Below are positions 3,042-28,044 of a stretch of DNA of 28,284 bases, in pieces; position 1 is the stretch's first letter, and the number at the start of each line of letters is the position of its first letter. The notes under the pieces are model-generated. The model was not told the DNA's origin and ran no database searches. It saw only the letters and a program-made list of their open reading frames with translations. Origin of the DNA: a virus. Lineage: Duplodnaviria; Heunggongvirae; Uroviricota; Caudoviricetes. The stretch is from IMG/VR virus record IMGVR_UViG_2713896773_000001, one strand, 5' to 3'. The position numbers and the translations under genes are program-made.

Positions 3042-3397
3042 AAATTTACGACATCACGCCGATCGGCAAGCCCCGTATGACCCGCGCCGACAAATGGAAA
3101 ACACGGCCTGCGGTCATGCGTTACCGCGCATTCTGCGATGAAGCACGTCTGCGCAAAATCAATCTCCCTGAGTCCGGCGCGCATATCACCTTCGTTATGC
3201 CAATGCCTCCGAGCTGGAGCAAAAAGAAGCGTGAACAGCTCAACGGCAAGCCGCACCAGTCAAAACCAGACTGCGACAACATGCTTAAAGCACTGATGGA
3301 TGCCCTGTTTGATGATGATTCCAGTGTCTGGGATTGTCGCATTACAAAGCTATGGGGCGAGAAAGGCCAGATCATCATTCGGGAGAACGGACAATGA
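3038..3397 (+). CDS. rusA: RusA-family Holliday junction resolvase
   Basis: PDCDNMLKALMDALFDD matches the RusA catalytic D-x-DN...K...DAL motif; position downstream of ninB in the nin region. Confidence 0.8.
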   Translation: MKIYDITPIGKPRMTRADKWKTRPAVMRYRAFCDEARLRKINLPESGAHITFVMPMPPSWSKKKREQLNGKPHQSKPDCDNMLKALMDALFDDDSSVWDCRITKLWGEKGQIIIRENGQ

Positions 3398-4077
3398 CAC
3401 GCACCGATATTAACAATTACCAGAAAGCGTCTGTTGAGCGTACCAACCCGCAAAACGCCTGGGTGACGCTGGCAGCAGCACCACGCAGATCTTACCTGGG
3501 GAAATACCGCCGACTGACACCATCGCAAAGCCGTTGGGTTCGTTCGTTGCTGAACAACTGGGGCGGCATGTATGGAGGCAGCGGAATAGAACACCTTTCA
3601 GGTGGCGGTGGTATGTGGTCAATGATATTGACCGGCTGGACTGGCGAACAGCAGGAGCGGATCGCTACCGTACTGTCTGGTCTGCGTAAAATTGGCTATA
3701 CCGGAGATGCGTTGTTTGAGCAGGCTAAAGCCATCATCTGGCCGAAGAAATCACTTTCTGACCTGATCGGCAACGCCGGGGATCAAGAGGAAGCTGCATT
3801 CATGGAGGCTATCATCCTGAAGTCCTTCAAGCCGGGGAATCCCGTGTATGAGATAGGGAAGGACTATTACACCTGGAGGAAAACCATTAATGACATGGCA
3901 CGGTGGATGCAATATTACTACGCGCCGTTTCTGACCGAAAAGCAATGTATTGACCGCGTGCGCTGGTGTATTGAGTTGTTTAATTCTGCTGTCTTCTTCA
4001 CGTTAAAAGATGAATTTGGCTTCGAAAATGCAAAAACTTGCGAAAAAGACTTGAAAACGAGTTTTGAAACTGCATAA
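3394..4077 (+). CDS. putative late-gene antiterminator (Q-like), assigned mainly by position
   Basis: ATGA overlap with rusA; last gene before a promoter/terminator pair and the lysis cassette, as for Q in lambdoid phages. Sequence family not confirmed. Confidence 0.5.
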   Translation: MTRTDINNYQKASVERTNPQNAWVTLAAAPRRSYLGKYRRLTPSQSRWVRSLLNNWGGMYGGSGIEHLSGGGGMWSMILTGWTGEQQERIATVLSGLRKIGYTGDALFEQAKAIIWPKKSLSDLIGNAGDQEEAAFMEAIILKSFKPGNPVYEIGKDYYTWRKTINDMARWMQYYYAPFLTEKQCIDRVRWCIELFNSAVFFTLKDEFGFENAKTCEKDLKTSFETA

Positions 4078-5209: not shown

Positions 5210-5658
5210 TTAGCGCACTGGTTAAGCGTTACTGGCTGCAGTTGCTGGTGCTGGCGTTAATCGGCGCACTGGCTTTCTTCGTGAACCACTACCGCGACAA
5301 CGCCATCACTTACAGAGACCAGCGCGATAAGGCCACTGAGAAACTCCTCCTGGCGACCGCCACCATTAAAGACATGCAGACCCGCCAGCGTGATGTCGCT
5401 GCACTGGATGCCAAATACACCGGAGAACTGGCTGATGCGAAAGAAACCATTGAGCGTCTGCATAGCGATGTCATTGCTGGCCGTAAGCGGCTGCAAGTCG
5501 CCGCCACCTGTGCAAAGTCAACGACCGGAGCCAGCAGNNNNNNNNNNNNNNNNNNNNNNNNNNNNNNNNNNNNNNNNNNNNNNNNNNNACTACCTGCAGG
5601 AATACATCAGGACGCAATGCCTGAAATAATTTTTTTGCAAATCACAAAGTCAATTTAA
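5206..5658 (+). CDS. Rz: i-spanin Rz; 3' part passes through an N-run
   Basis: ATGA overlap with the endolysin; N-terminal transmembrane segment then coiled-coil-like region; about 150 aa. The 51-nt N-run at 5538-5588 is inside the gene. Confidence 0.7.
5435..5629 (+). CDS. Rz1: o-spanin Rz1 lipoprotein embedded in the +1 frame of Rz; 3' part passes through an N-run
   Basis: [20 protein letters not shown] lipoprotein signal with lipobox VSGC, followed by a proline-rich mature region ([13 protein letters not shown]). Confidence 0.6.
5538..5588. other. run of 51 N (gap or masked sequence) inside Rz/Rz1
   Basis: Directly visible in the sequence. Confidence 1.
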
Positions 5659-5661
5659 TGA

Positions 5662-5684
5662 GCCTCGCGATGCGGGGCTTTTTT
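5662..5684 (+). terminator. rho-independent terminator after the lysis cassette (GCCTCGC-GAT-GCGGGGC followed by TTTTTT)
   Basis: Stem-loop plus T-run immediately after the Rz stop. Confidence 0.55.
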
Positions 5685-5827
5685 ATGTCCGCAGTAAACG
5701 CGCATCTCACGCGCATATTAACGAGAGCCTTTCAGTAAGCGAGCCTGAGAAATGCCGTTATAGGTGGCGACCTCTCTCGGGCGGCTTTTCTGTGAGACAG
5801 GCTCACTTTCTAAAAGGTAAAGACGCT

Positions 5828-6346
5828 ATGAATAATCCGTCAGTTATTCCGGCCTTCGACTTCCGCGAAATGGTCACGACCCTCGACAACAAGATAATCA
5901 CCACATCACTCAAGGTGGCGGATTACTTTGGCAAGCGACACAAAGACGTTTTGCGTGCCATACGTAACCTGAAATGCTCCGATGACTTCACCCAGCGCAA
6001 TTTTGCGCCCATTGATTTCATTGATAAAAATGGCGATGTTCAGCCTATGTATAACATCACCCGCGACGGATGCATGATGCTAGTGATGGGATTCACTGGC
6101 AAAACAGCTGCCGCAGTGAAGGAGTGTTACATCAATGCCTTCAACTGGATGGCCGAGCAGCTAAACCGGCGCATGGCGATGGGTGAAGAATTGCAGCATC
6201 GCTACGCCATCAAAGAAACGCGCTCAAAGCTGAAAGGCACGATCGGAAGCCGTTTGATGAACGAGCGGAAGAAAGAGAAGCGCGTCCTGGAGCTCGAACA
6301 TGAGCACATCATGCAGGTAACGCAGCCGGAATTACTTATTGGCTGA
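5828..6346 (+). CDS. rha: Rha-family phage regulatory protein
   Basis: TTSLKVADYFGKRHKDVLRAIRNL...NITRDGCMMLVMGFTG matches the conserved Rha N-terminal domain. ATG at 5828 chosen over the GTG at 5792. Confidence 0.7.
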   Translation: MNNPSVIPAFDFREMVTTLDNKIITTSLKVADYFGKRHKDVLRAIRNLKCSDDFTQRNFAPIDFIDKNGDVQPMYNITRDGCMMLVMGFTGKTAAAVKECYINAFNWMAEQLNRRMAMGEELQHRYAIKETRSKLKGTIGSRLMNERKKEKRVLELEHEHIMQVTQPELLIG

Positions 6347-18796: not shown

Positions 18797-18984
18797 CCTT
18801 CAACAGCCTGCCGGGCGGTGAAGATTTTATTCTTCGTCCGGCGCTTGCCTTCCATATTGACCAGAAAGACCTTAACAGCGGTGCGGTAGACCTTTGCCGC
18901 ATCGCGCTTCTCAATGACTACCTCGACATGCGCGAGGATAACGACGCCCGGGTAGATAAATGGAGAGCGGCCAATGAGCGGTAA
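18745..18984 (+). CDS. -1 frame extension of the tail assembly chaperone (GT-like fusion product)
   Basis: About 79 codons open in the -1 frame, with no start codon of its own, ending just inside the tape measure gene. Confidence 0.5.
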   Translation, partial: FFARTPYQRDAHPASGITFNSLPGGEDFILRPALAFHIDQKDLNSGAVDLCRIALLNDYLDMREDNDARVDKWRAANER

Positions 18985-21241
18985 CGCAGATACGATTAAA
19001 GATTTCCTTGTTTCGCTGGGATTCGATATCGATCAGGCTGGCGCTAATAAGTTTGAAGCCGTGCTGAAAGGCGTTACCGCGAACGTTCTGAAGGTCGGCG
19101 CGGTGGTGGAAGGCGCAGCGCTGAGCATTGTCGGATTTACCACCCAGATCGCGAATGGTCTGGATAAAATTTACTGGGCATCCCAGCGGACGGGGGCCAG
19201 CGTCCAGGGCATCAAAGCGCTGGGCTATGCCGCATCGCAAACGGGTGCCAGCGCCGAGTCGGCCATGTCCTCCCTCGAAGGGCTGGCCGGTTTCATGCGT
19301 AGCAATCCGGGGGCGGAAGGCTTCCTGAACCGTCTGGGTGTCCAGACCCGTGATGCCAGCGGAAAGATGCGTGATACTGCGGCCATCTTTACTGGCGTTG
19401 GGCAAAAGCTCAACAACATGCCGTATTACCGCGCGAAGCAATACGCGCAGATGCTCGGCATCGATGAAAACACGCTGATGGCGATGCGGCGCGGCATGAA
19501 TGGCTTTACCGCCGATTACCAGTCTATGCTGCAAAAGACGGGGTTCAACGCTGATAAGGCAGCCGTTCAGTCCAACAAATTCATGACGTCCATGCGCGGG
19601 CTTACGTCGCTGTTCGGCATTATGCGGGACAAGATCGGCTCAAACCTCGCTGGTGGTCTTGCTGGTTCGCTGGACAGCCTGCGGCGGCGCATCCTCGACA
19701 ACTTCCCGAAGATTGAAGAGACGCTGACCAGAGTTATTAAAGGCGTGATCTGGCTTGCGAACGCCTTCACGCGAATGGCGTGGCGGCTCATACAGGGCGC
19801 TGGCTTTGTCATTGACTGGTGGAAGCGTCTTGACGATGGCAGTAAAAATCTGCTGAAAATATTCGGTGCTCTACTTGTCGCATGGCGTCTGCTTAATTCT
19901 GCGTTCCTGAAATCCCCGATTGGAATTATCACCACGCTGATTCTGGCGATCGGATTACTCTATGACGATTATCAGACGTGGAAAGAAGGCGGTAAAAGCC
20001 TGATTGACTGGAGCAAGTGGGAGCCTGCAATAGAAAAGGCGAAAAAGGCAATTCTCTGGCTGCGCGATAAGCTTCTGGGGCTGAAAGATTCTGTTGGTGG
20101 ATGGCAGAACTCGCTGGAAATTTTGGCTACCTTCATTGCTGGGGTTTGGGTAACAAAAGTGCTAGGAGCGTTCGCAAAAATATCCGGCCTTCCGATACCC
20201 CCCTGGCTTAAATTATGGGGATTGTATGCCGGTTATGTGGTTTCAGATCGTGAAAACATAAAAGCCAGTGCGCAATCGTCGTGGAATTACGCAAAAAGGA
20301 ACGTTGGCGACGCTCTTGCAGCGATCGGCATCAAAACCGATCTTGGGCGCAAAGACGTTAGCGAGGTACGGGAGTGGCCTGCATGGATGGATTGGCTGCA
20401 TGGTGGCCCAGGTAAGATTATTCGTCAAGCGCAAAGCAATGGCGTCGTTTATGGCGATAATGTTCAGCCTGACATTCCTGGGGTGGAACAGCATGTTCGT
20501 AGTAATGAAATTGCCCCGCATGAAAGAGATGAAATAAAAAACCGACAGCAGGCTGCTAATGGTTATCTTGAAAAGATCTCAGACGGGATTGCCAAAATCG
20601 GTAATTTACTTTTCTCACCGGCAGGTGCTGCTGAAATCTCTCCAAATATACCGAGCGATCCCACCAAGTTGGCGCAATCAGTTAAACGCCCACAAGCCAC
20701 AGCGCAGGGCAAGGTTTTGCTCGACTGGATGGGGCCATTGTTCAATAAGCTGGAGTCTCTTTATCAGCTGCCTGCTGGCTTGTTGAAAAGCGTGGCGATC
20801 ACCGAGTCGGGTGGTAACCAGTTCGCTGTGTCCGGCGCAGGCGCGAAAGGACTGTTTCAGTTTATGGATGGCACGGCGCGCGACATGGGCCTGCGTGGGA
20901 ATGATGTATTCGACCCGGAAAAGTCAGCTCAGGCAGCCGCTAAGTACCTCAGCCAGCTGTTGCGGCAGAACGGCGGAGACCTTAGCAAAGCACTGGCATC
21001 ATATAACTGGGGGATCGGGAATGTTAAGCGTTATGGAATGGGGCTAATGCCGCAGGAAACGCGCAACTACATTCCGAAAGTAATGAGCAATATGCCCACC
21101 AGCGCCCCGGTGATTCAGCAGGAAACGAATATTAACATCCACGGCGTTTTCGATCCGCGCGAGGCTGCCCGTTTGACTGTTGACCGTCAAAAGGGCGTGA
21201 ATTCACAGTTAACCCAGCAACTCCCCGCAGGACCGAGATAA
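18974..21241 (+). CDS. tail tape measure protein with C-terminal lytic transglycosylase (SLT) domain
   Basis: 755 aa with a hydrophobic central region; C-terminal AITESGGNQFAVSGAGAKGLFQFMDGTA...AAKYLSQL...YNWG matches the SLT catalytic region. Confidence 0.85.
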   Translation: MSGNADTIKDFLVSLGFDIDQAGANKFEAVLKGVTANVLKVGAVVEGAALSIVGFTTQIANGLDKIYWASQRTGASVQGIKALGYAASQTGASAESAMSSLEGLAGFMRSNPGAEGFLNRLGVQTRDASGKMRDTAAIFTGVGQKLNNMPYYRAKQYAQMLGIDENTLMAMRRGMNGFTADYQSMLQKTGFNADKAAVQSNKFMTSMRGLTSLFGIMRDKIGSNLAGGLAGSLDSLRRRILDNFPKIEETLTRVIKGVIWLANAFTRMAWRLIQGAGFVIDWWKRLDDGSKNLLKIFGALLVAWRLLNSAFLKSPIGIITTLILAIGLLYDDYQTWKEGGKSLIDWSKWEPAIEKAKKAILWLRDKLLGLKDSVGGWQNSLEILATFIAGVWVTKVLGAFAKISGLPIPPWLKLWGLYAGYVVSDRENIKASAQSSWNYAKRNVGDALAAIGIKTDLGRKDVSEVREWPAWMDWLHGGPGKIIRQAQSNGVVYGDNVQPDIPGVEQHVRSNEIAPHERDEIKNRQQAANGYLEKISDGIAKIGNLLFSPAGAAEISPNIPSDPTKLAQSVKRPQATAQGKVLLDWMGPLFNKLESLYQLPAGLLKSVAITESGGNQFAVSGAGAKGLFQFMDGTARDMGLRGNDVFDPEKSAQAAAKYLSQLLRQNGGDLSKALASYNWGIGNVKRYGMGLMPQETRNYIPKVMSNMPTSAPVIQQETNINIHGVFDPREAARLTVDRQKGVNSQLTQQLPAGPR

Positions 21242-22171: not shown

Positions 22172-23236
22172 ATGTCTCTTAACTGGATGCGCCATTTTGA
22201 GCTGCAACTGTTGGACCAGAACGGGCAGGGCGTTTCCCTGTCTGATTTTAAGGTCACGTTCCAGATCGAGTGGGCAGATACACGCTGGCCGCGAGTGGCG
22301 AACGTGAAAATTTACAACCTTTCGACCGATACCACGAACAAGATACTGGGGCAGGAGTTTGCAAAAATTCGCATCATTGCCGGGTATGACGGTATTGCGC
22401 CGGATGTTGATGCGAGCCAGGTTGGTGTCGCCCGGGAGATTTCACCAGACCAGGTAGGGCAGGTGAACGGTCAGAACTACGGCCTGATATTTGACGGTGA
22501 TATTCGCTTCACCGTCACCGGGAAGGACAACATCACCGATTCCTGGGTGCTGATTCAGGCCATCAGTAACCACGAAGCGTTCCTCTACGCGACTACCATC
22601 ACCACGCTTGCCGCTGGCTATACCGTTGCGGATCTGCACCGGGCGACGATGCAGGATTTCAACGCGTTCGGCGTGACACAGGGCATTACCGGCGATTTTC
22701 CTGATACCGTGTTTCCTCGTGGCCGCGCGATTTACTCATCCAGCCGCAACGTGATGGATAATATTGCTGCGCAGTGTAAAGCAACATGGCAACTGGTGGA
22801 TGGTCAGGTCCAGATGGTGCCTGAAGATAAATATATTCACGAAGCCATTGTGTTGAATGCTGATACTGGCCTGATCGGTATGCCGCAACAGACGATGGGC
22901 GGCGGCGTAAACGTGCGGTGCCTGATAAACCCGAACATCCGCATTAATGGTCTTATCCAGCTCGATCAGGCTTCGGTGTACCGCGCCGCGCTCGGCAATA
23001 GCGAAATCGCACAGTCGCCCGGGCGTATCACCGAAACAGAAGAGAACGGCAACCGTGTGCTGACCGGCACGACGTCACAGGCTGCCAGCATTGCGACGGA
23101 TGGCGTTTATATCGTCAAAGCTATCGACTATACTGGCGACACCAGAGGTCAGGCGTGGTACATGGATTTGATGTGTTTTGCGCGTGGCAGCCGTGATTTA
23201 GTTAATACTAGTGCTATGCAAAAAACAAACTACTGA
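22172..23236 (+). CDS. putative baseplate hub-type protein
   Basis: 354 aa, AGGAG upstream, positioned before the spike and wedge genes. The last codons are AT-rich, at the border of the cargo island. Confidence 0.5.
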   Translation: MSLNWMRHFELQLLDQNGQGVSLSDFKVTFQIEWADTRWPRVANVKIYNLSTDTTNKILGQEFAKIRIIAGYDGIAPDVDASQVGVAREISPDQVGQVNGQNYGLIFDGDIRFTVTGKDNITDSWVLIQAISNHEAFLYATTITTLAAGYTVADLHRATMQDFNAFGVTQGITGDFPDTVFPRGRAIYSSSRNVMDNIAAQCKATWQLVDGQVQMVPEDKYIHEAIVLNADTGLIGMPQQTMGGGVNVRCLINPNIRINGLIQLDQASVYRAALGNSEIAQSPGRITETEENGNRVLTGTTSQAASIATDGVYIVKAIDYTGDTRGQAWYMDLMCFARGSRDLVNTSAMQKTNY

Positions 23237-23246
23237 GGTACGGGAT

Positions 23247-23582
23247 GTGAAACTCGTAATTTTTACCATTGCAGCATTATTTTCTTTCCAGGCTATTGCT
23301 GATTCTCAGTGTGGTGATTTCAAAATCCATTGGGCTGATGATGGCTTTGCTCGCGTAAACGGAGCTAAACCAGAATCGCAAAAAGTGACATTTCTTAAAA
23401 ATGACGGTGATTATAACAACGTCAAAATTGAATGGCGTTTAGCTACAAATCAACCCGGACGATGGGTAGGCATGGAGTTTATTGGCCGTAATGGTAAAGC
23501 AATCCTGAATGCTCAGTGGCTGCAAGCCAGCATGAACGCGCCGCGACAGTACGCAACATACGACTGCGTGAAGGTGAAGTAG
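23247..23582 (+). CDS. small secreted protein (cleavable signal peptide, two Cys), moron-type cargo; GTG start
   Basis: GAGG upstream of GTG 23247; N-terminal KLVIFTIAALFSFQAIA then DSQCG...; AT-rich compared with the flanking tail genes. Confidence 0.5.
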   Translation: MKLVIFTIAALFSFQAIADSQCGDFKIHWADDGFARVNGAKPESQKVTFLKNDGDYNNVKIEWRLATNQPGRWVGMEFIGRNGKAILNAQWLQASMNAPRQYATYDCVKVK

Positions 23583-23590
23583 GTATAAAG

Positions 23591-23614
23591 AAAAAGCGCC
23601 GGGTTGACCGGCGC
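23591..23614 (-). terminator. stem-loop (GCGCCGG-GTTGA-CCGGCGC) with a T-run on the minus strand; terminator for the minus-strand cargo gene, possibly bidirectional
   Basis: Perfect 7-bp GC stem; AAAAA on the + side gives TTTTT after the hairpin for a minus-strand transcript. Confidence 0.5.
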
Positions 23615-23620
23615 GCCAAG

Positions 23621-23971
23621 TTATTCCTCTTTGAAGCTGATGTTCTTGCACTGCTCCATTACTTCAATCAGTTCTTTTGACGTCAGGTTTTCTACTTCGA
23701 TTTTACCTTTCTCTGTGGTCATTGTTATTTTTTTGGATGATCTGGTCTGTATCCATTTTCTTGCGATAGATGCAATGGCTATACAAGCTGGTGACGACGT
23801 GGCTACGATGATAGTTATGTCGACGAGCGTGCCAACCGCATTAATTGAGTCAGCAGTTCTGATTCGTCTGCGTATTTTATAGTCGCTTTCAGGTATGTTA
23901 TCCTGGATTATGGAGAGCAATTCTTTGCCTATTGCTGGAGTAAATTTTATGGTTGTTTCTGATTTTGGCAT
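23621..23971 (-). CDS. hypothetical small protein with a central hydrophobic (membrane-type) segment, moron-type cargo
   Basis: 116-aa minus-strand ORF in the AT-rich island, K/E/I-rich with AVGTLVDITIIVATSSPACIAIASIA segment; terminator immediately downstream on its own strand. Confidence 0.45.
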   Translation of the reverse strand: MPKSETTIKFTPAIGKELLSIIQDNIPESDYKIRRRIRTADSINAVGTLVDITIIVATSSPACIAIASIARKWIQTRSSKKITMTTEKGKIEVENLTSKELIEVMEQCKNISFKEE

Positions 23972-24110
23972 AAAGGTATCCGGCCCCTATCGTGAGAAGC
24001 TAAAAATTGCCTTGCGGCTTTTTCTTGGCAGCCTGTATCTCGCTACGAACCACGACGTTACCGTGGTTTTAAGCAAGACCTACATTCAGGGCTGCAAAGA
24101 AGATAAATAG
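23949..24110 (+). CDS. candidate small ORF (53 aa from ATG 23949) in the cargo island
   Basis: GGAG 8 nt upstream of ATG 23949; followed by a + strand terminator. Its 5' end overlaps the minus-strand gene start, so one of the two models may be wrong. Confidence 0.3.
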   Translation: MVVSDFGIKVSGPYREKLKIALRLFLGSLYLATNHDVTVVLSKTYIQGCKEDK

Positions 24111-24150
24111 CACGGACAAATCAGCCCTCAAACCCTGACATTTGATCAGT

Positions 24151-24175
24151 AACCCGCCGCCGAGCGGGTTTTTTT
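24151..24175 (+). terminator. rho-independent terminator (AACCCGC-CGCCGA-GCGGGTT followed by a T-run) directly upstream of the baseplate spike gene
   Basis: GC stem plus 7 T on the + strand. Confidence 0.6.
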
Positions 24176-24186
24176 ATGGAGTTTTT

Positions 24187-24927
24187 ATGCCAATTCCAAC
24201 TCAATCACAGATCGGCGGAGAGCAGCAGACCGCGCAGGCCATTGCCGATTCGGTGTCTGCCCAGATGCGCGTGGCGATGCCAGGCATCATTCAGTCGTTC
24301 GATCCTGCCGCTGTAACCTGCACAGTAGAAGTGGCGCTTCGCGGTATTGTTGGCGATGGTTCCACCGAATTAAAACCGCTGGTGGATGTGCCGGTCATCT
24401 TCCCGCGCGGCGGCGGTTGCACGCTGACCTTTCCGGTAAAAGAAGGCGACGAGTGCCTCCTGATTTTTGCTGACCGTTGCATCGATTTTTGGTGGCAGAG
24501 CGGCGGCGTTCAGGAGACCGTCGACCCGCGCCAGCATGACTTATCTGATGCGTTCGCCATCGTTGGCCCGCAGTCGCAAGCACAGAAAATCAGCGGTATC
24601 AGTACCAGCGCCGCGCAGCTGCGAACCGATGATGGCGCGGCGTTCGTAGAGGTCGCCGCAGGACATAACATCACCATTAAAACGCCGGGCCAGCTTACGG
24701 CTACGGCTGAAGGTGGAACGACAATCACATCCCCGACTATCACGCTGAACGGCAACGTAACGATTAACGGTAACCTGTCTCAGGGAATGGGAGAAAGTGG
24801 TGGTACTGCGACGATGCTTGGGCCGGTTACGGTAACGAATGATGTGACAGCTTCAGGTATAAGTGTCGCCACGCATAAACATGGCGGAGTTCAGACAGGC
24901 GGGGGAACTACTGGAGGGCCGCAATAA
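24187..24927 (+). CDS. putative baseplate spike protein (gpV-like)
   Basis: GGAG upstream; C-terminal Gly/Thr-rich repeat region (TITLNGNVTINGNLSQG...) typical of spikes; position before the wedge genes. Confidence 0.55.
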   Translation: MPIPTQSQIGGEQQTAQAIADSVSAQMRVAMPGIIQSFDPAAVTCTVEVALRGIVGDGSTELKPLVDVPVIFPRGGGCTLTFPVKEGDECLLIFADRCIDFWWQSGGVQETVDPRQHDLSDAFAIVGPQSQAQKISGISTSAAQLRTDDGAAFVEVAAGHNITIKTPGQLTATAEGGTTITSPTITLNGNVTINGNLSQGMGESGGTATMLGPVTVTNDVTASGISVATHKHGGVQTGGGTTGGPQ

Positions 24928-26480: not shown

Positions 26481-27157
26481 GCAAATACACCGAACTGATC
26501 ACTAACTACCACGCTACCAAGCCACTCTTTTTTGACCATATAGATCTGAGCACCCGCCCGCTGATTGATGTGTCCAGCACTATGTCAGGGCTTATAACAG
26601 CCTTCGATATCGATACTGCTGTCGGTGTACAGCTCGACATCCTCGGTCTGTGGATCGGACGCAGTCGCATAGTCAGCCAGCCAATTAGCGGAGTTTATTT
26701 CAGCTGGGACACTGACTGGCTTGGGTATGACCAGGGCATCTGGCAAGGGCCATATGATCCTGATTCTGGCTATACGACGCTAAGCGATGAGACGTACCGC
26801 ATCATTCTGAAAGCGAAAATCGCTATCAACAACTGGGACGGTCGGAACGACTCTCTGCCTCCCATCCTTGACGCTGCTACCGCAGGCTCAGGCCTGAGGA
26901 TGCAGATCGTCGACAACCAGGACATGACGATTTCGGTCTGGGTTTTCCCTGAAACTGATATTTCTGATGTGTCTCTCGAACTGATCGCCGCTATCAAACA
27001 GGGCTATCTCACCGTTAAATCAGCTGGCGTATGGGCCGGTGATGTTGAAACGCCTTCGGTAGAAACACCGTCAGAAGGCTCTAAATTCTTTGGGTTTGAT
27101 ATGGATAACGAATACATCGGCGGGTTCGATGTTGGAGCATGGGGGACAATACTCTAA
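26477..27157 (+). CDS. baseplate / tail protein (gpI-like)
   Basis: ATGA-coupled ORF between the J-like and tail fiber genes. Confidence 0.45.
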   Translation: MSKYTELITNYHATKPLFFDHIDLSTRPLIDVSSTMSGLITAFDIDTAVGVQLDILGLWIGRSRIVSQPISGVYFSWDTDWLGYDQGIWQGPYDPDSGYTTLSDETYRIILKAKIAINNWDGRNDSLPPILDAATAGSGLRMQIVDNQDMTISVWVFPETDISDVSLELIAAIKQGYLTVKSAGVWAGDVETPSVETPSEGSKFFGFDMDNEYIGGFDVGAWGTIL

Positions 27158-28044
27158 TGGCAATAAACAACTTTAAACCTTTCGCGCTTGATCCGAACGC
27201 TAACGTCACCTCACAAGCTGACTGGGAAGCACTTCCGGCTCTGCTTTCAGGGTTTACGGCAGGTAAAGCATCCAGCGCACAGGTCAACAAAGCTATTCGG
27301 CAAGCCAGCTTTATCGCGGCAGCGTTGGCGCAGTACACCGCCAACAAAAGCGGGCTGGATGTGCTTGATGATGGAGACCTGAACGGGTTTATATCCAAAA
27401 TGGGGACCGCTTTCGGGAAAGATTTCCAGGCGCTTGATGCCACGCTGTCGGCATTAGCTGGGCTCGCAACAGGTGCAAATAAACTCCCATATTTCACTGG
27501 AAATGATACAGCAGCGCAGACTGATTTAACTTCTGTTGGCCGTGACATTATTGGGAAAAATACTATTGCTGACATTCTCACATACCTTGGTTTGGGAGAA
27601 GGCTCAGCGTTACCCGTTGGTGTACCTGTTCCGTGGCCTTCAGCCACTCCGCCAACAGGCTGGCTGAAATGCAATGGTGCGCCTTTTTCTGCCGAAGAGT
27701 ATCCGGAACTGGCAAAAGTTTATCCGACAAATGAATTGCCAGATTTACGTGGTGAGTTTATTCGTGGCTGGGATGATGGGCGAGGAGTTGATACGGGGCG
27801 CAGAATTCTGTCTGCTCAGGGGGATGCTATTAGAAATATTACAGGCTGGTTTGGTGCGCACGCCACAGTGGTGGCTAAACCTCCGTTTGTTAAATTTTCT
27901 GCGCCGGAAATAGCAGAAAATGTCGGGGTTGGAGGGGGGAGTACGCGAGACGCTGTCAAACTTGATTTATCGTTATCGGTCCCCACGGCAAGCGAAAACC
28001 GCCCACGCAGTATCGCATTTAACTATATCGTGAGGGCTGCATAA
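27157..28044 (+). CDS. tail fiber protein with phage tail-collar domain
   Basis: PTGWLKCNGAPFSAEEYPELAKVYP...LPDLRGEFIRGWDDGRG matches the tail-collar fiber motif; TAATG coupling. Confidence 0.75.
   Translation: MAINNFKPFALDPNANVTSQADWEALPALLSGFTAGKASSAQVNKAIRQASFIAAALAQYTANKSGLDVLDDGDLNGFISKMGTAFGKDFQALDATLSALAGLATGANKLPYFTGNDTAAQTDLTSVGRDIIGKNTIADILTYLGLGEGSALPVGVPVPWPSATPPTGWLKCNGAPFSAEEYPELAKVYPTNELPDLRGEFIRGWDDGRGVDTGRRILSAQGDAIRNITGWFGAHATVVAKPPFVKFSAPEIAENVGVGGGSTRDAVKLDLSLSVPTASENRPRSIAFNYIVRAA

Follow-up and report, generated by a model that had tools for sequence, protein, structure and literature searches.

How should one read a short AT-rich interval, with genes on both strands, that separates two tail genes of an otherwise tightly packed phage operon? 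The question is raised by a 28,284-nucleotide stretch of viral DNA (Caudoviricetes; IMG/VR record IMGVR_UViG_2713896773_000001), which we refer to as the window, and within it by positions 23237-24186, exactly the gap between the stop of the baseplate hub gene (23236) and the start of the spike gene (24187). An earlier note, made from the letters of the DNA, had described this interval as a single inserted cargo island with three small proteins, here called open reading frames (ORFs) A, B and C. We find that it belongs to a familiar class of feature, the prophage accessory or defence slot, and that it holds an orphan member of the EACC1 family (ORF B) together with a new, overlapping partner gene (ORF C). 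The interval is made of three layers and not of one insert: a resident gene (ORF A), an exchangeable cassette (B-C) and a terminator that belongs to the tail backbone. Coordinates of all features are collected in Table 1.

The compositional premise of the note is borne out. The guanine-plus-cytosine (GC) content of the interval is 0.440 compared with 0.534 across the window, a value as low as this is reached in only 0.6% of 950-bp windows, and the window-wide minimum falls inside the interval; in every related locus, too, the gap has a lower GC content than its 2-kb flanks. The codon-usage calculation that the note had proposed gives the same picture: the GC content at third codon positions (GC3) is 0.41 in ORF A and 0.42 in ORF B, whereas the genes for tape measure, baseplate, hub and spike have values of 0.51-0.63 (a low value, 0.43, is also seen in the tail-fibre gene at the far end of the window). 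Since the neighbouring tail genes all lie on the plus strand and abut or overlap one another, the interruption of the operon, with ORF B on the minus strand, is genuine.

What the note had taken for one island comes apart when related loci are compared. We retrieved 21 loci from other species through the hub protein and added five from Escherichia coli records, five found via homologues of B, 17 viral contigs that carry B and four found via distant homologues of C; individual loci are cited by L numbers, and hub identity across L001-L025 is 52-99%. About 20 of the first 25 loci, and each of the 17 viral contigs with B, have a homologue of ORF A (36-96% identity) directly downstream of the hub gene. 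B and C, unlike the nearly constant ORF A, are absent from most of the relatives surveyed and are present or absent at one position. The note had pointed to relatives lacking the insert as a comparison, and they exist: at L009 and L022 the site is empty, with only 62 bp from the stop of A to the start of the spike gene and the terminator retained, and other relatives carry different cargo. Conservation among relatives, which the note had named as the observation that would speak against its view, is thus found in part for ORF A and is not found for B-C. Furthermore, loci that share B-C at 97-100% identity have A genes that are only 59-76% and spike genes that are 66-100% identical; because near-identical cassettes occur on diverged A backgrounds, we read the cassette as moving as a unit between backbones. 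The description as moron or defence cargo therefore survives for 23583-24150, where empty sites and known defence systems are seen in relatives, and falls for the 950 bp as a whole.

The third layer is the plus-strand terminator directly in front of the spike gene. It is found in all 24 loci compared, both empty sites included. Among its 19 distinct sequences 99.2% of cells are paired, compensatory double changes occur in 3 of the 7 pairs, and none of 500 shuffles matches this pairing. This terminator is a backbone element and not cargo. The second terminator, on the minus strand (called at 23614-23596), serves ORF B. In L027 and L028 a C-G pair of its hairpin is replaced by T-A, a compensatory change that preserves the hairpin; the hairpin of L031 is a different one. 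Of the strand-specific terminators that the note had placed at both ends of its island, two are thus present, the minus-strand one lying between A and B and the plus-strand one belonging to the backbone. A weak plus-strand hairpin at 23239-23258 overlaps the start codon of ORF A, and we take it as chance.

The order of hub gene, ORF A (nearly always), variable cassette, conserved terminator and spike gene constitutes a cargo hotspot in the tail operon, and what relatives keep in the slot shows its character. Known defence systems occupy it: PD-Lambda-1 in L015 (2830-4059, E 2.8e-82) and PDC-S42 in L014 (5503-6372, E 1.7e-36). The slot of L010 holds a Phd/Doc toxin-antitoxin pair (3107-3702), and these three alleles come from prophages of Pantoea and Yersinia. 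A DUF4236 protein (L002), a Clp-fold protease (L013) and a T5orf172 domain are also among the cargo. Several further alleles are unannotated two-gene sets (L012/L013/L021 and L016/L020/L025) and hold candidate new defence genes. The B-C cassette itself is carried by 13 of 5426 complete E. coli genomes.

We now consider ORF B, which the note had described as an opposite-strand, membrane-type protein. The protein has 116 residues and does contain a hydrophobic segment, at residues 52-70. It also belongs to a family that has a name. Kaur et al. 2020 (PMC7159879) defined a two-gene system in which EACC1 is always the first gene and a caspase-like protease, fused to domains that vary, is encoded by the second; they read EACC1 as a membrane protein with a single transmembrane segment and noted a central hydrophobic helix with a small-residue patch. 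In Ktedonobacter, EACC1 (KrEACC1) is an autoinhibited monomer that the KrAvs12 protease cuts into an N-terminal fragment of 5.7 kDa and a C-terminal fragment of 7.1 kDa, with the site predicted at Asp49; the C-terminal fragment alone is toxic and permeabilises liposomes (Evans et al. 2025, bioRxiv 10.1101/2025.11.14.688446). Using the KrEACC1 sequence (WP_007905045.1) from the supplement of that study, we compute fragments of 5.7 and 7.2 kDa for a split after residue 49, in agreement with the reported masses.

Several comparisons place ORF B in this family. The Pfam model PF19953 matches 14 of 15 members of the ORF B family (best E 3.4e-7), and relatives of B have precomputed PF19953 hits and carry the name 'effector-associated constant component EACC1' in several database sources. 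BLASTP aligns B with KrEACC1 over 93 residues (15-106 to 22-106, E 4e-10), and hhalign gives a probability of 85% (E 6e-6). In the alignment, the KrEACC1 motif LRTQD(49) has IRTAD(41) as its counterpart in B. In B this motif lies in a loop, after an N-terminal domain (residues 1-38), in which T39 and D41 are invariant throughout the family, including a homologue from Kosakonia that is only 25% identical (L023); the T-x-D motif is also retained in the distant homologues of L050 and L053. The hydrophobic, small-residue segment 52-70 (ITIIVATSSPACIAIASIA, Kyte-Doolittle 1.96) is placed as in KrEACC1, and it contains the most conserved stretch of the protein, SSPAC-AIASI, with S59, S60, P61, A62, C63, A65, I66, A67, S68 and I69 invariant. 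An AlphaFold2 (AF2) model of B has an N-terminal beta-alpha-beta unit and a low-confidence loop at 39-47, followed by a strand, a helix, a hairpin, a helix and a strand. The enterobacterial relatives of B whose contexts we examined, down to 25% identity, all lie in this slot. By sequence, then, ORF B is a member of the EACC1 family outside the canonical EACC1-caspase system, and by analogy with KrEACC1 it is a predicted latent pore-forming toxin.

One could instead read B as a membrane protein that is never cleaved, inserted through its central helix and acting in superinfection exclusion or in lysis timing in the manner of holins or Imm/Sie proteins. The central position of the hydrophobic segment would suit such a role, as would the original single-transmembrane reading of EACC1 (Kaur et al. 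2020, PMC7159879), and an accessory slot beside an exported protein fits an envelope function. We regard it as quite unlikely, given that the homologue that has been studied is soluble, autoinhibited and dependent on cleavage, that AF2 puts the hydrophobic segment of B within an alpha/beta domain, and that the invariant Asp loop would be left unexplained. A part in lysis timing is unlikely for the additional reason that the late and lysis transcripts run antisense to B.

The possible third ORF of the note proves to be a real gene, although shorter than the mechanically called frame. The 71-residue version would start at 23895, at an upstream ATG that is not conserved, and both gene callers and homologues give 53 residues. 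We examined selection on ORF C in five cassettes whose B proteins differ by up to about 35%. In the part outside the overlap with B, the variable columns fall 15/5/30 on the three codon positions; the proportion of synonymous differences (pS) is about 0.7 and that of nonsynonymous differences (pN) about 0.13, with a ratio of the two rates (dN/dS) of about 0.05-0.3, and stops occur in all five other frames of the region. There are 14 close clusters, mostly of 53 residues, and a profile search of 1.84 billion representative proteins returns only 7 small relatives of 51-63 residues. C accompanies B in every cassette examined. The distant pairs keep the arrangement, with an overlap of 19 nt in L023 and of 23 nt in L050 and L053, where C is about 40-50% identical. 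We find no match for C in Pfam (up to E 10), PHROGs or PDB sequences, and none for the 71-residue frame that contains it in PADLOC-DB 2.0. A relation to the inhibitory domain of B, which C might have mimicked, is not seen either (profile-profile probability 0.3%). RefSeq leaves C unannotated in 12 of 13 E. coli records, the annotated one being that of strain M172-1 (WP_016243572.1). From its pattern of substitution we conclude that ORF C is a real gene under purifying selection and the only undescribed element of the interval. The statement that none of the three proteins is recognisable therefore stands for C, and was too strong for B, an EACC1 protein, and for A, which matches a phage protein family of unknown function.

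What would such a pair do? We propose that B-C is a lysogen-borne, protease-gated membrane toxin used for defence or addiction, with C as its regulator, and we give this reading a probability of roughly 0.5. B would be transcribed in the lysogen against the direction of the late operon, from a promoter of its own inside or beyond C and up to its own terminator, and its product would rest as an autoinhibited monomer, as KrEACC1 does. A cut after Asp41 (IRTAD/S, the slash marking the cut) would remove the N-terminal domain, and the freed C-terminal part, whose hydrophobic helix is rich in small residues, would assemble into oligomeric membrane pores, causing cell death or arrest. Since no protease is linked to B, the cut must come in trans, and the protease could be one of the host's own or one that an infecting phage brings or induces. 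The cassette would thereby act to the prophage's benefit, through abortive infection or exclusion. C, which lies on the late strand and antisense to the 5' end of B, would most likely be a safety catch or regulator. The Q protein makes late transcription in lambda resistant to terminators, and because the window contains a Q-like gene, late transcription could pass the internal terminator. Such antiterminated transcription would run antisense through B and in the sense direction through C, so that B would be silenced and C made in lytic growth; a switch of this kind fits C as a safety catch or antidote. The most complete form of the proposal, in which B-C is a self-contained immunity module of a new type, a caspase-free EACC1 fired in trans at RTAD/S and disarmed by C in the lytic cycle, is tentative and on balance somewhat unlikely.

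The arrangement of the two genes also suggests an addiction or toxin-antitoxin system, in which B would be a membrane toxin, C (as protein, antisense transcript or both) its antidote, and no phage-sensing protease step would be involved; the pair would then mainly stabilise the prophage or the cassette itself. B and C are small, strictly co-inherited and overlap at their 5' ends on opposite strands, and Phd/Doc, a bona fide toxin-antitoxin pair, is another allele of the slot. The E. coli strain M172-1 has lost the toxin part of B and kept C intact, which is the usual pattern of decay in toxin-antitoxin systems, here in a single case. Against this, the RTxD motif is conserved from Ktedonobacter to the phage proteins, which is hard to explain without proteolysis, the head-to-head order is unlike that of type II operons, and C matches no antitoxin family. 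We judge a protease-free addiction module of this kind unlikely. The M172-1 cassette (L049 1989-2265) is worth describing in its own right: B is cut down to residues 1-42 plus three foreign codons, the break coincides with the RTAD/S site, and the junction (taacccgccgc/tgagtcagc) resembles half a terminator. This suggests decay by illegitimate recombination with an upstream lipoprotein cassette.

Returning to the protease-gated toxin, a number of results weigh against it. No caspase-like or other protease gene is linked to B in about 30 loci (the check covered L001, L007, L027-L048, L050 and L053); what follows B is its own terminator and, beyond that, the oppositely oriented ORF A, not a protease gene. 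Two candidates for a partner in trans were also rejected. One is the effector-less E. coli caspase WP_001598021.1, for which 5426 complete E. coli genomes contain no DNA match. The other is the SDH Clp-fold protease, which occurs in 28 genomes and, among the 13 carriers of B-C, only in strain E89. Consensus scans for a promoter of B or C gave weak sites only, some of them within coding sequence. The family assignment of B itself has soft spots: its score against PF19953 is 23.6 bits, exactly the gathering threshold and thus borderline, its AF2 model is only moderate (predicted local distance difference test, pLDDT, 69), and PADLOC-DB 2.0 yields only a weak hit to SngB (E 0.0025). Because C has no detectable similarity, even to B, its role is read from the gene arrangement and from nothing else, and the structural match of the neighbouring ORF A is a generic one. 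In the E89 prophage, outside the window, a gene for an 'SDH family Clp fold serine proteinase' adjoins the cI-like repressor gene (L026 41209-42213); the Clp-fold proteases, there and in the slot of L013, look like recurrent prophage cargo themselves.

A motif kept without its protease might also mean that B is a decoy, an EACC1 look-alike with which the phage soaks up or blocks a caspase-type defence protease of the host. Effector-less caspases that defend E. coli have indeed been reported (Evans et al. 2025, bioRxiv 10.1101/2025.11.14.688446). The orientation of B against the late operon, however, leads one to expect expression in the lysogen rather than during infection, and the best conserved part of B is the predicted pore-forming C-terminal half, which is unexpected for a decoy. 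In addition, the genomes without the published caspase include the 13 that carry B-C, and B is found in none of 50,697 deposited phage genomes. We consider the decoy very unlikely.

The resident layer, ORF A, has a character of its own. As the note had proposed, it encodes a small secreted protein, with a predicted signal peptide, an AxA/D cleavage site and two invariant cysteines (C22 and C107). It matches phrog_3443 (unknown function, E 9e-44), its homologues form 117 clusters, all enterobacterial and either unnamed or called 'secreted/exported protein', and no PADLOC-DB 2.0 model matches it. AF2 gives a confident, all-beta model (pLDDT 84), and the predicted product is an exported, disulfide-bonded, 8-stranded beta-barrel protein. 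Its alleles are reshuffled independently of hub and spike, as in a comparison where the hub is 97%, A 59% and the spike 100% identical. A different exported protein or lipoprotein takes its place in L004, L011, L049, L050 and L053. In L008 (5099-5989) and L016 (5075-5941), from prophages of Enterobacter and Phytobacter, the A domain forms the C-terminal end of a longer lipoprotein (about 290 residues) that has a lipobox (…TGC / …AGC), which suggests that the domain works where membrane and periplasm meet. A promoter-like sequence, TTTATA-17-TATACT, lies at 23106-23134, inside the 3' end of the hub gene and about 110 nt upstream of ORF A; its TATACT is present in 17 of 18 loci, wobble positions included, but the entire 3' end of the hub gene is highly conserved.

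ORF A is also the gene on which the plainest account of the interval would have to build, namely that the interval contains nothing but ordinary genes for tail structure or assembly, and no cargo. The position of A after the hub gene in most relatives, and its overlap with the hub stop codon in some records, would agree with that account. It is scarcely credible in view of the absence of B-C from most relatives and the two empty sites, of the independent reshuffling of A alleles, and of the exported lipoproteins that replace A in the five loci just listed; moreover, tails are put together in the cytoplasm, whereas the signal peptide of A is cleavable and its disulfide conserved, so that the protein leaves that compartment. 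Because A is exported and disulfide-bonded it cannot be a tail part assembled in the cytoplasm, and we read it as an envelope-acting, resident accessory gene of the tail module, not a recent insert. It is probably a periplasmic envelope or superinfection-exclusion factor, which is the weakest inference of our analysis.

Table 1. Features of the interval 23237-24186 and of its surroundings, in window coordinates.
Feature	Positions	Strand	Description
Q-like late antiterminator	3334..4077	+	phrog_753, E 1.5e-57
Baseplate hub gene, left backbone flank	22172..23236	+	weak Pfam E217_GP41 match
ORF A, 111 aa	23247..23582	+	GTG start 8 nt after GAGG
Exchangeable B-C cassette, stop of A to backbone terminator	23583..24150	.	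empty sites and other cargo in relatives
ORF B intrinsic terminator	23586..23614	-	stem GCGCCGG/CCGGCGC, then T-run; between A and B
ORF B, 116 aa, EACC1-family	23621..23971	-	Pfam PF19953
ORF C, 53 aa	23949..24110	+	GGAG 8 nt upstream of ATG; 23-nt head-to-head overlap with start of B
Palindrome-like motif CTGACATTTGATCAG	24135..24149	.	between stop of C and backbone terminator; conserved in all B-C cassettes
Backbone intrinsic terminator	24151..24175	+	7-bp stem, 6-nt loop, T7; directly upstream of spike ribosome-binding site
gpV-type spike gene, right backbone flank	24187..24927	+	Pfam PF18352, E 1e-41, plus Apex motif

The palindrome-like motif of Table 1 also occurs beside other minus-strand cargo, in L013 (the Clp-fold protease) and L023, and is missing where the slot is empty. 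It might serve as an operator, as a promoter component or as a recombination joint. An Rfam 15 scan of 22800-24600 returned nothing at the gathering score, the nearest being sroD with 21 bits (threshold 50) and tmRNA with 12 (threshold 47).

The window as a whole is part of a lambdoid prophage. Downstream of the Q-like gene lie holin, lysozyme and Rz genes, and the window also encodes NinX, NinB and RusA. The lysis genes are followed by head genes and then by a module of the contractile-tail type, with a tape measure protein that has a lytic transglycosylase (SLT) domain, a Dit-like protein, a plug, the hub, the spike, baseplate J and a fibre. The prophage of E. coli E89 is 95-97% identical in the tail region, and its regulatory region encodes CI, CII, CIII and Q. 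For the tape measure protein (18974-21241), a C-terminal SLT region is given by the RefSeq annotation of the E89 homologue, and Pfam SLT matches a relative in L031. Other low-GC spots are 5501-6000, after Rz (GC 0.44), near the equivalent of which the E89 relative has a KilA-N gene, and the tail-fibre gene (27139-28044), whose GC3 was given above; both are probably further mosaic or accessory positions.

The orphan status of B gives the locus its wider interest. Until now EACC1 was known solely as the constant companion of a caspase-type protease encoded next to it, and in the sole experimental study it needs that protease to become a pore. Here we see a protease-less EACC1 lineage that keeps the cleavage motif in prophages of E. 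coli, Klebsiella, Citrobacter, Kosakonia and Symbiopectobacterium. What triggers B bears on whether protease-gated death effectors can be fired in trans, for example by the proteases of an infecting phage, and on how a prophage spares its own lytic cycle from such a weapon. If the self-contained module were true, B would be a protease-bait effector with a lysogeny/lytic switch encoded in the choice of strand. The locus also bears on whether new defence genes could usefully be mined from the hub-spike slot in this common family of prophages.

How does this arrangement compare with known systems? ORF A resembles T5 Llp, phi80/N15 Cor and T4 Sp in being small, exported and located within or beside the tail genes of a temperate phage, with alleles that diversify and are sometimes replaced by lipoproteins; it differs from them in having no sequence similarity or specific fold similarity. 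The interval as a whole resembles the morons of lambdoid phages and the defence hotspots of P2/P4-like prophages: AT-rich accessory genes stand between conserved late genes and vary among relatives, with a terminator of their own, some genes on the opposite strand, and known defence systems at the slot in relatives. As a concept, morons and prophage defence hotspots were reportedly set out by Juhala and Hendrix in 2000 and by Rousset and colleagues in 2022. Unlike those examples, the slot lies between hub and spike in a myovirus-type tail on a lambdoid backbone, and it has two tiers, a near-constant exported protein and a variable cassette, closed by a terminator of the backbone.

For the cassette, type I toxin-antitoxin loci such as symE/symR and hok/sok offer the parallel of an opposite-strand transcript over the 5' end and start codon of a small, membrane-active toxin gene; the opposite strand here, in contrast, bears a conserved protein gene under purifying selection, no RNA family matches, and B is three to four times the size of a typical type I toxin. 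Type II systems are operons of two co-directional genes with a recognisable antitoxin or toxin domain, whereas B and C are head-to-head on opposite strands and C has no recognisable domain. The logic we propose, in which an autoinhibited pore-former is freed by site-specific proteolysis to bring about abortive infection, is that of the bacterial gasdermin-protease systems, to which B is related neither in sequence nor in fold. Gasdermins are larger, are released by the loss of a C-terminal and not an N-terminal inhibitory peptide, and have their protease encoded next door. The closest likeness is with the EACC1-caspase systems themselves. B is a full-length homologue of about 115 residues, with the N-terminal beta-alpha-beta unit, the Asp linker, the small-residue hydrophobic helix and the C-terminal strands, and its RTxD is aligned with the predicted cleavage site of KrEACC1. 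It departs from them in having no caspase or other protease downstream or nearby, in its residence in a prophage tail-operon slot of Enterobacterales, whereas those systems come chiefly from actinobacteria and other multicellular bacteria, and in being paired with a new 53-residue gene that lies on the opposite strand and overlaps its start.

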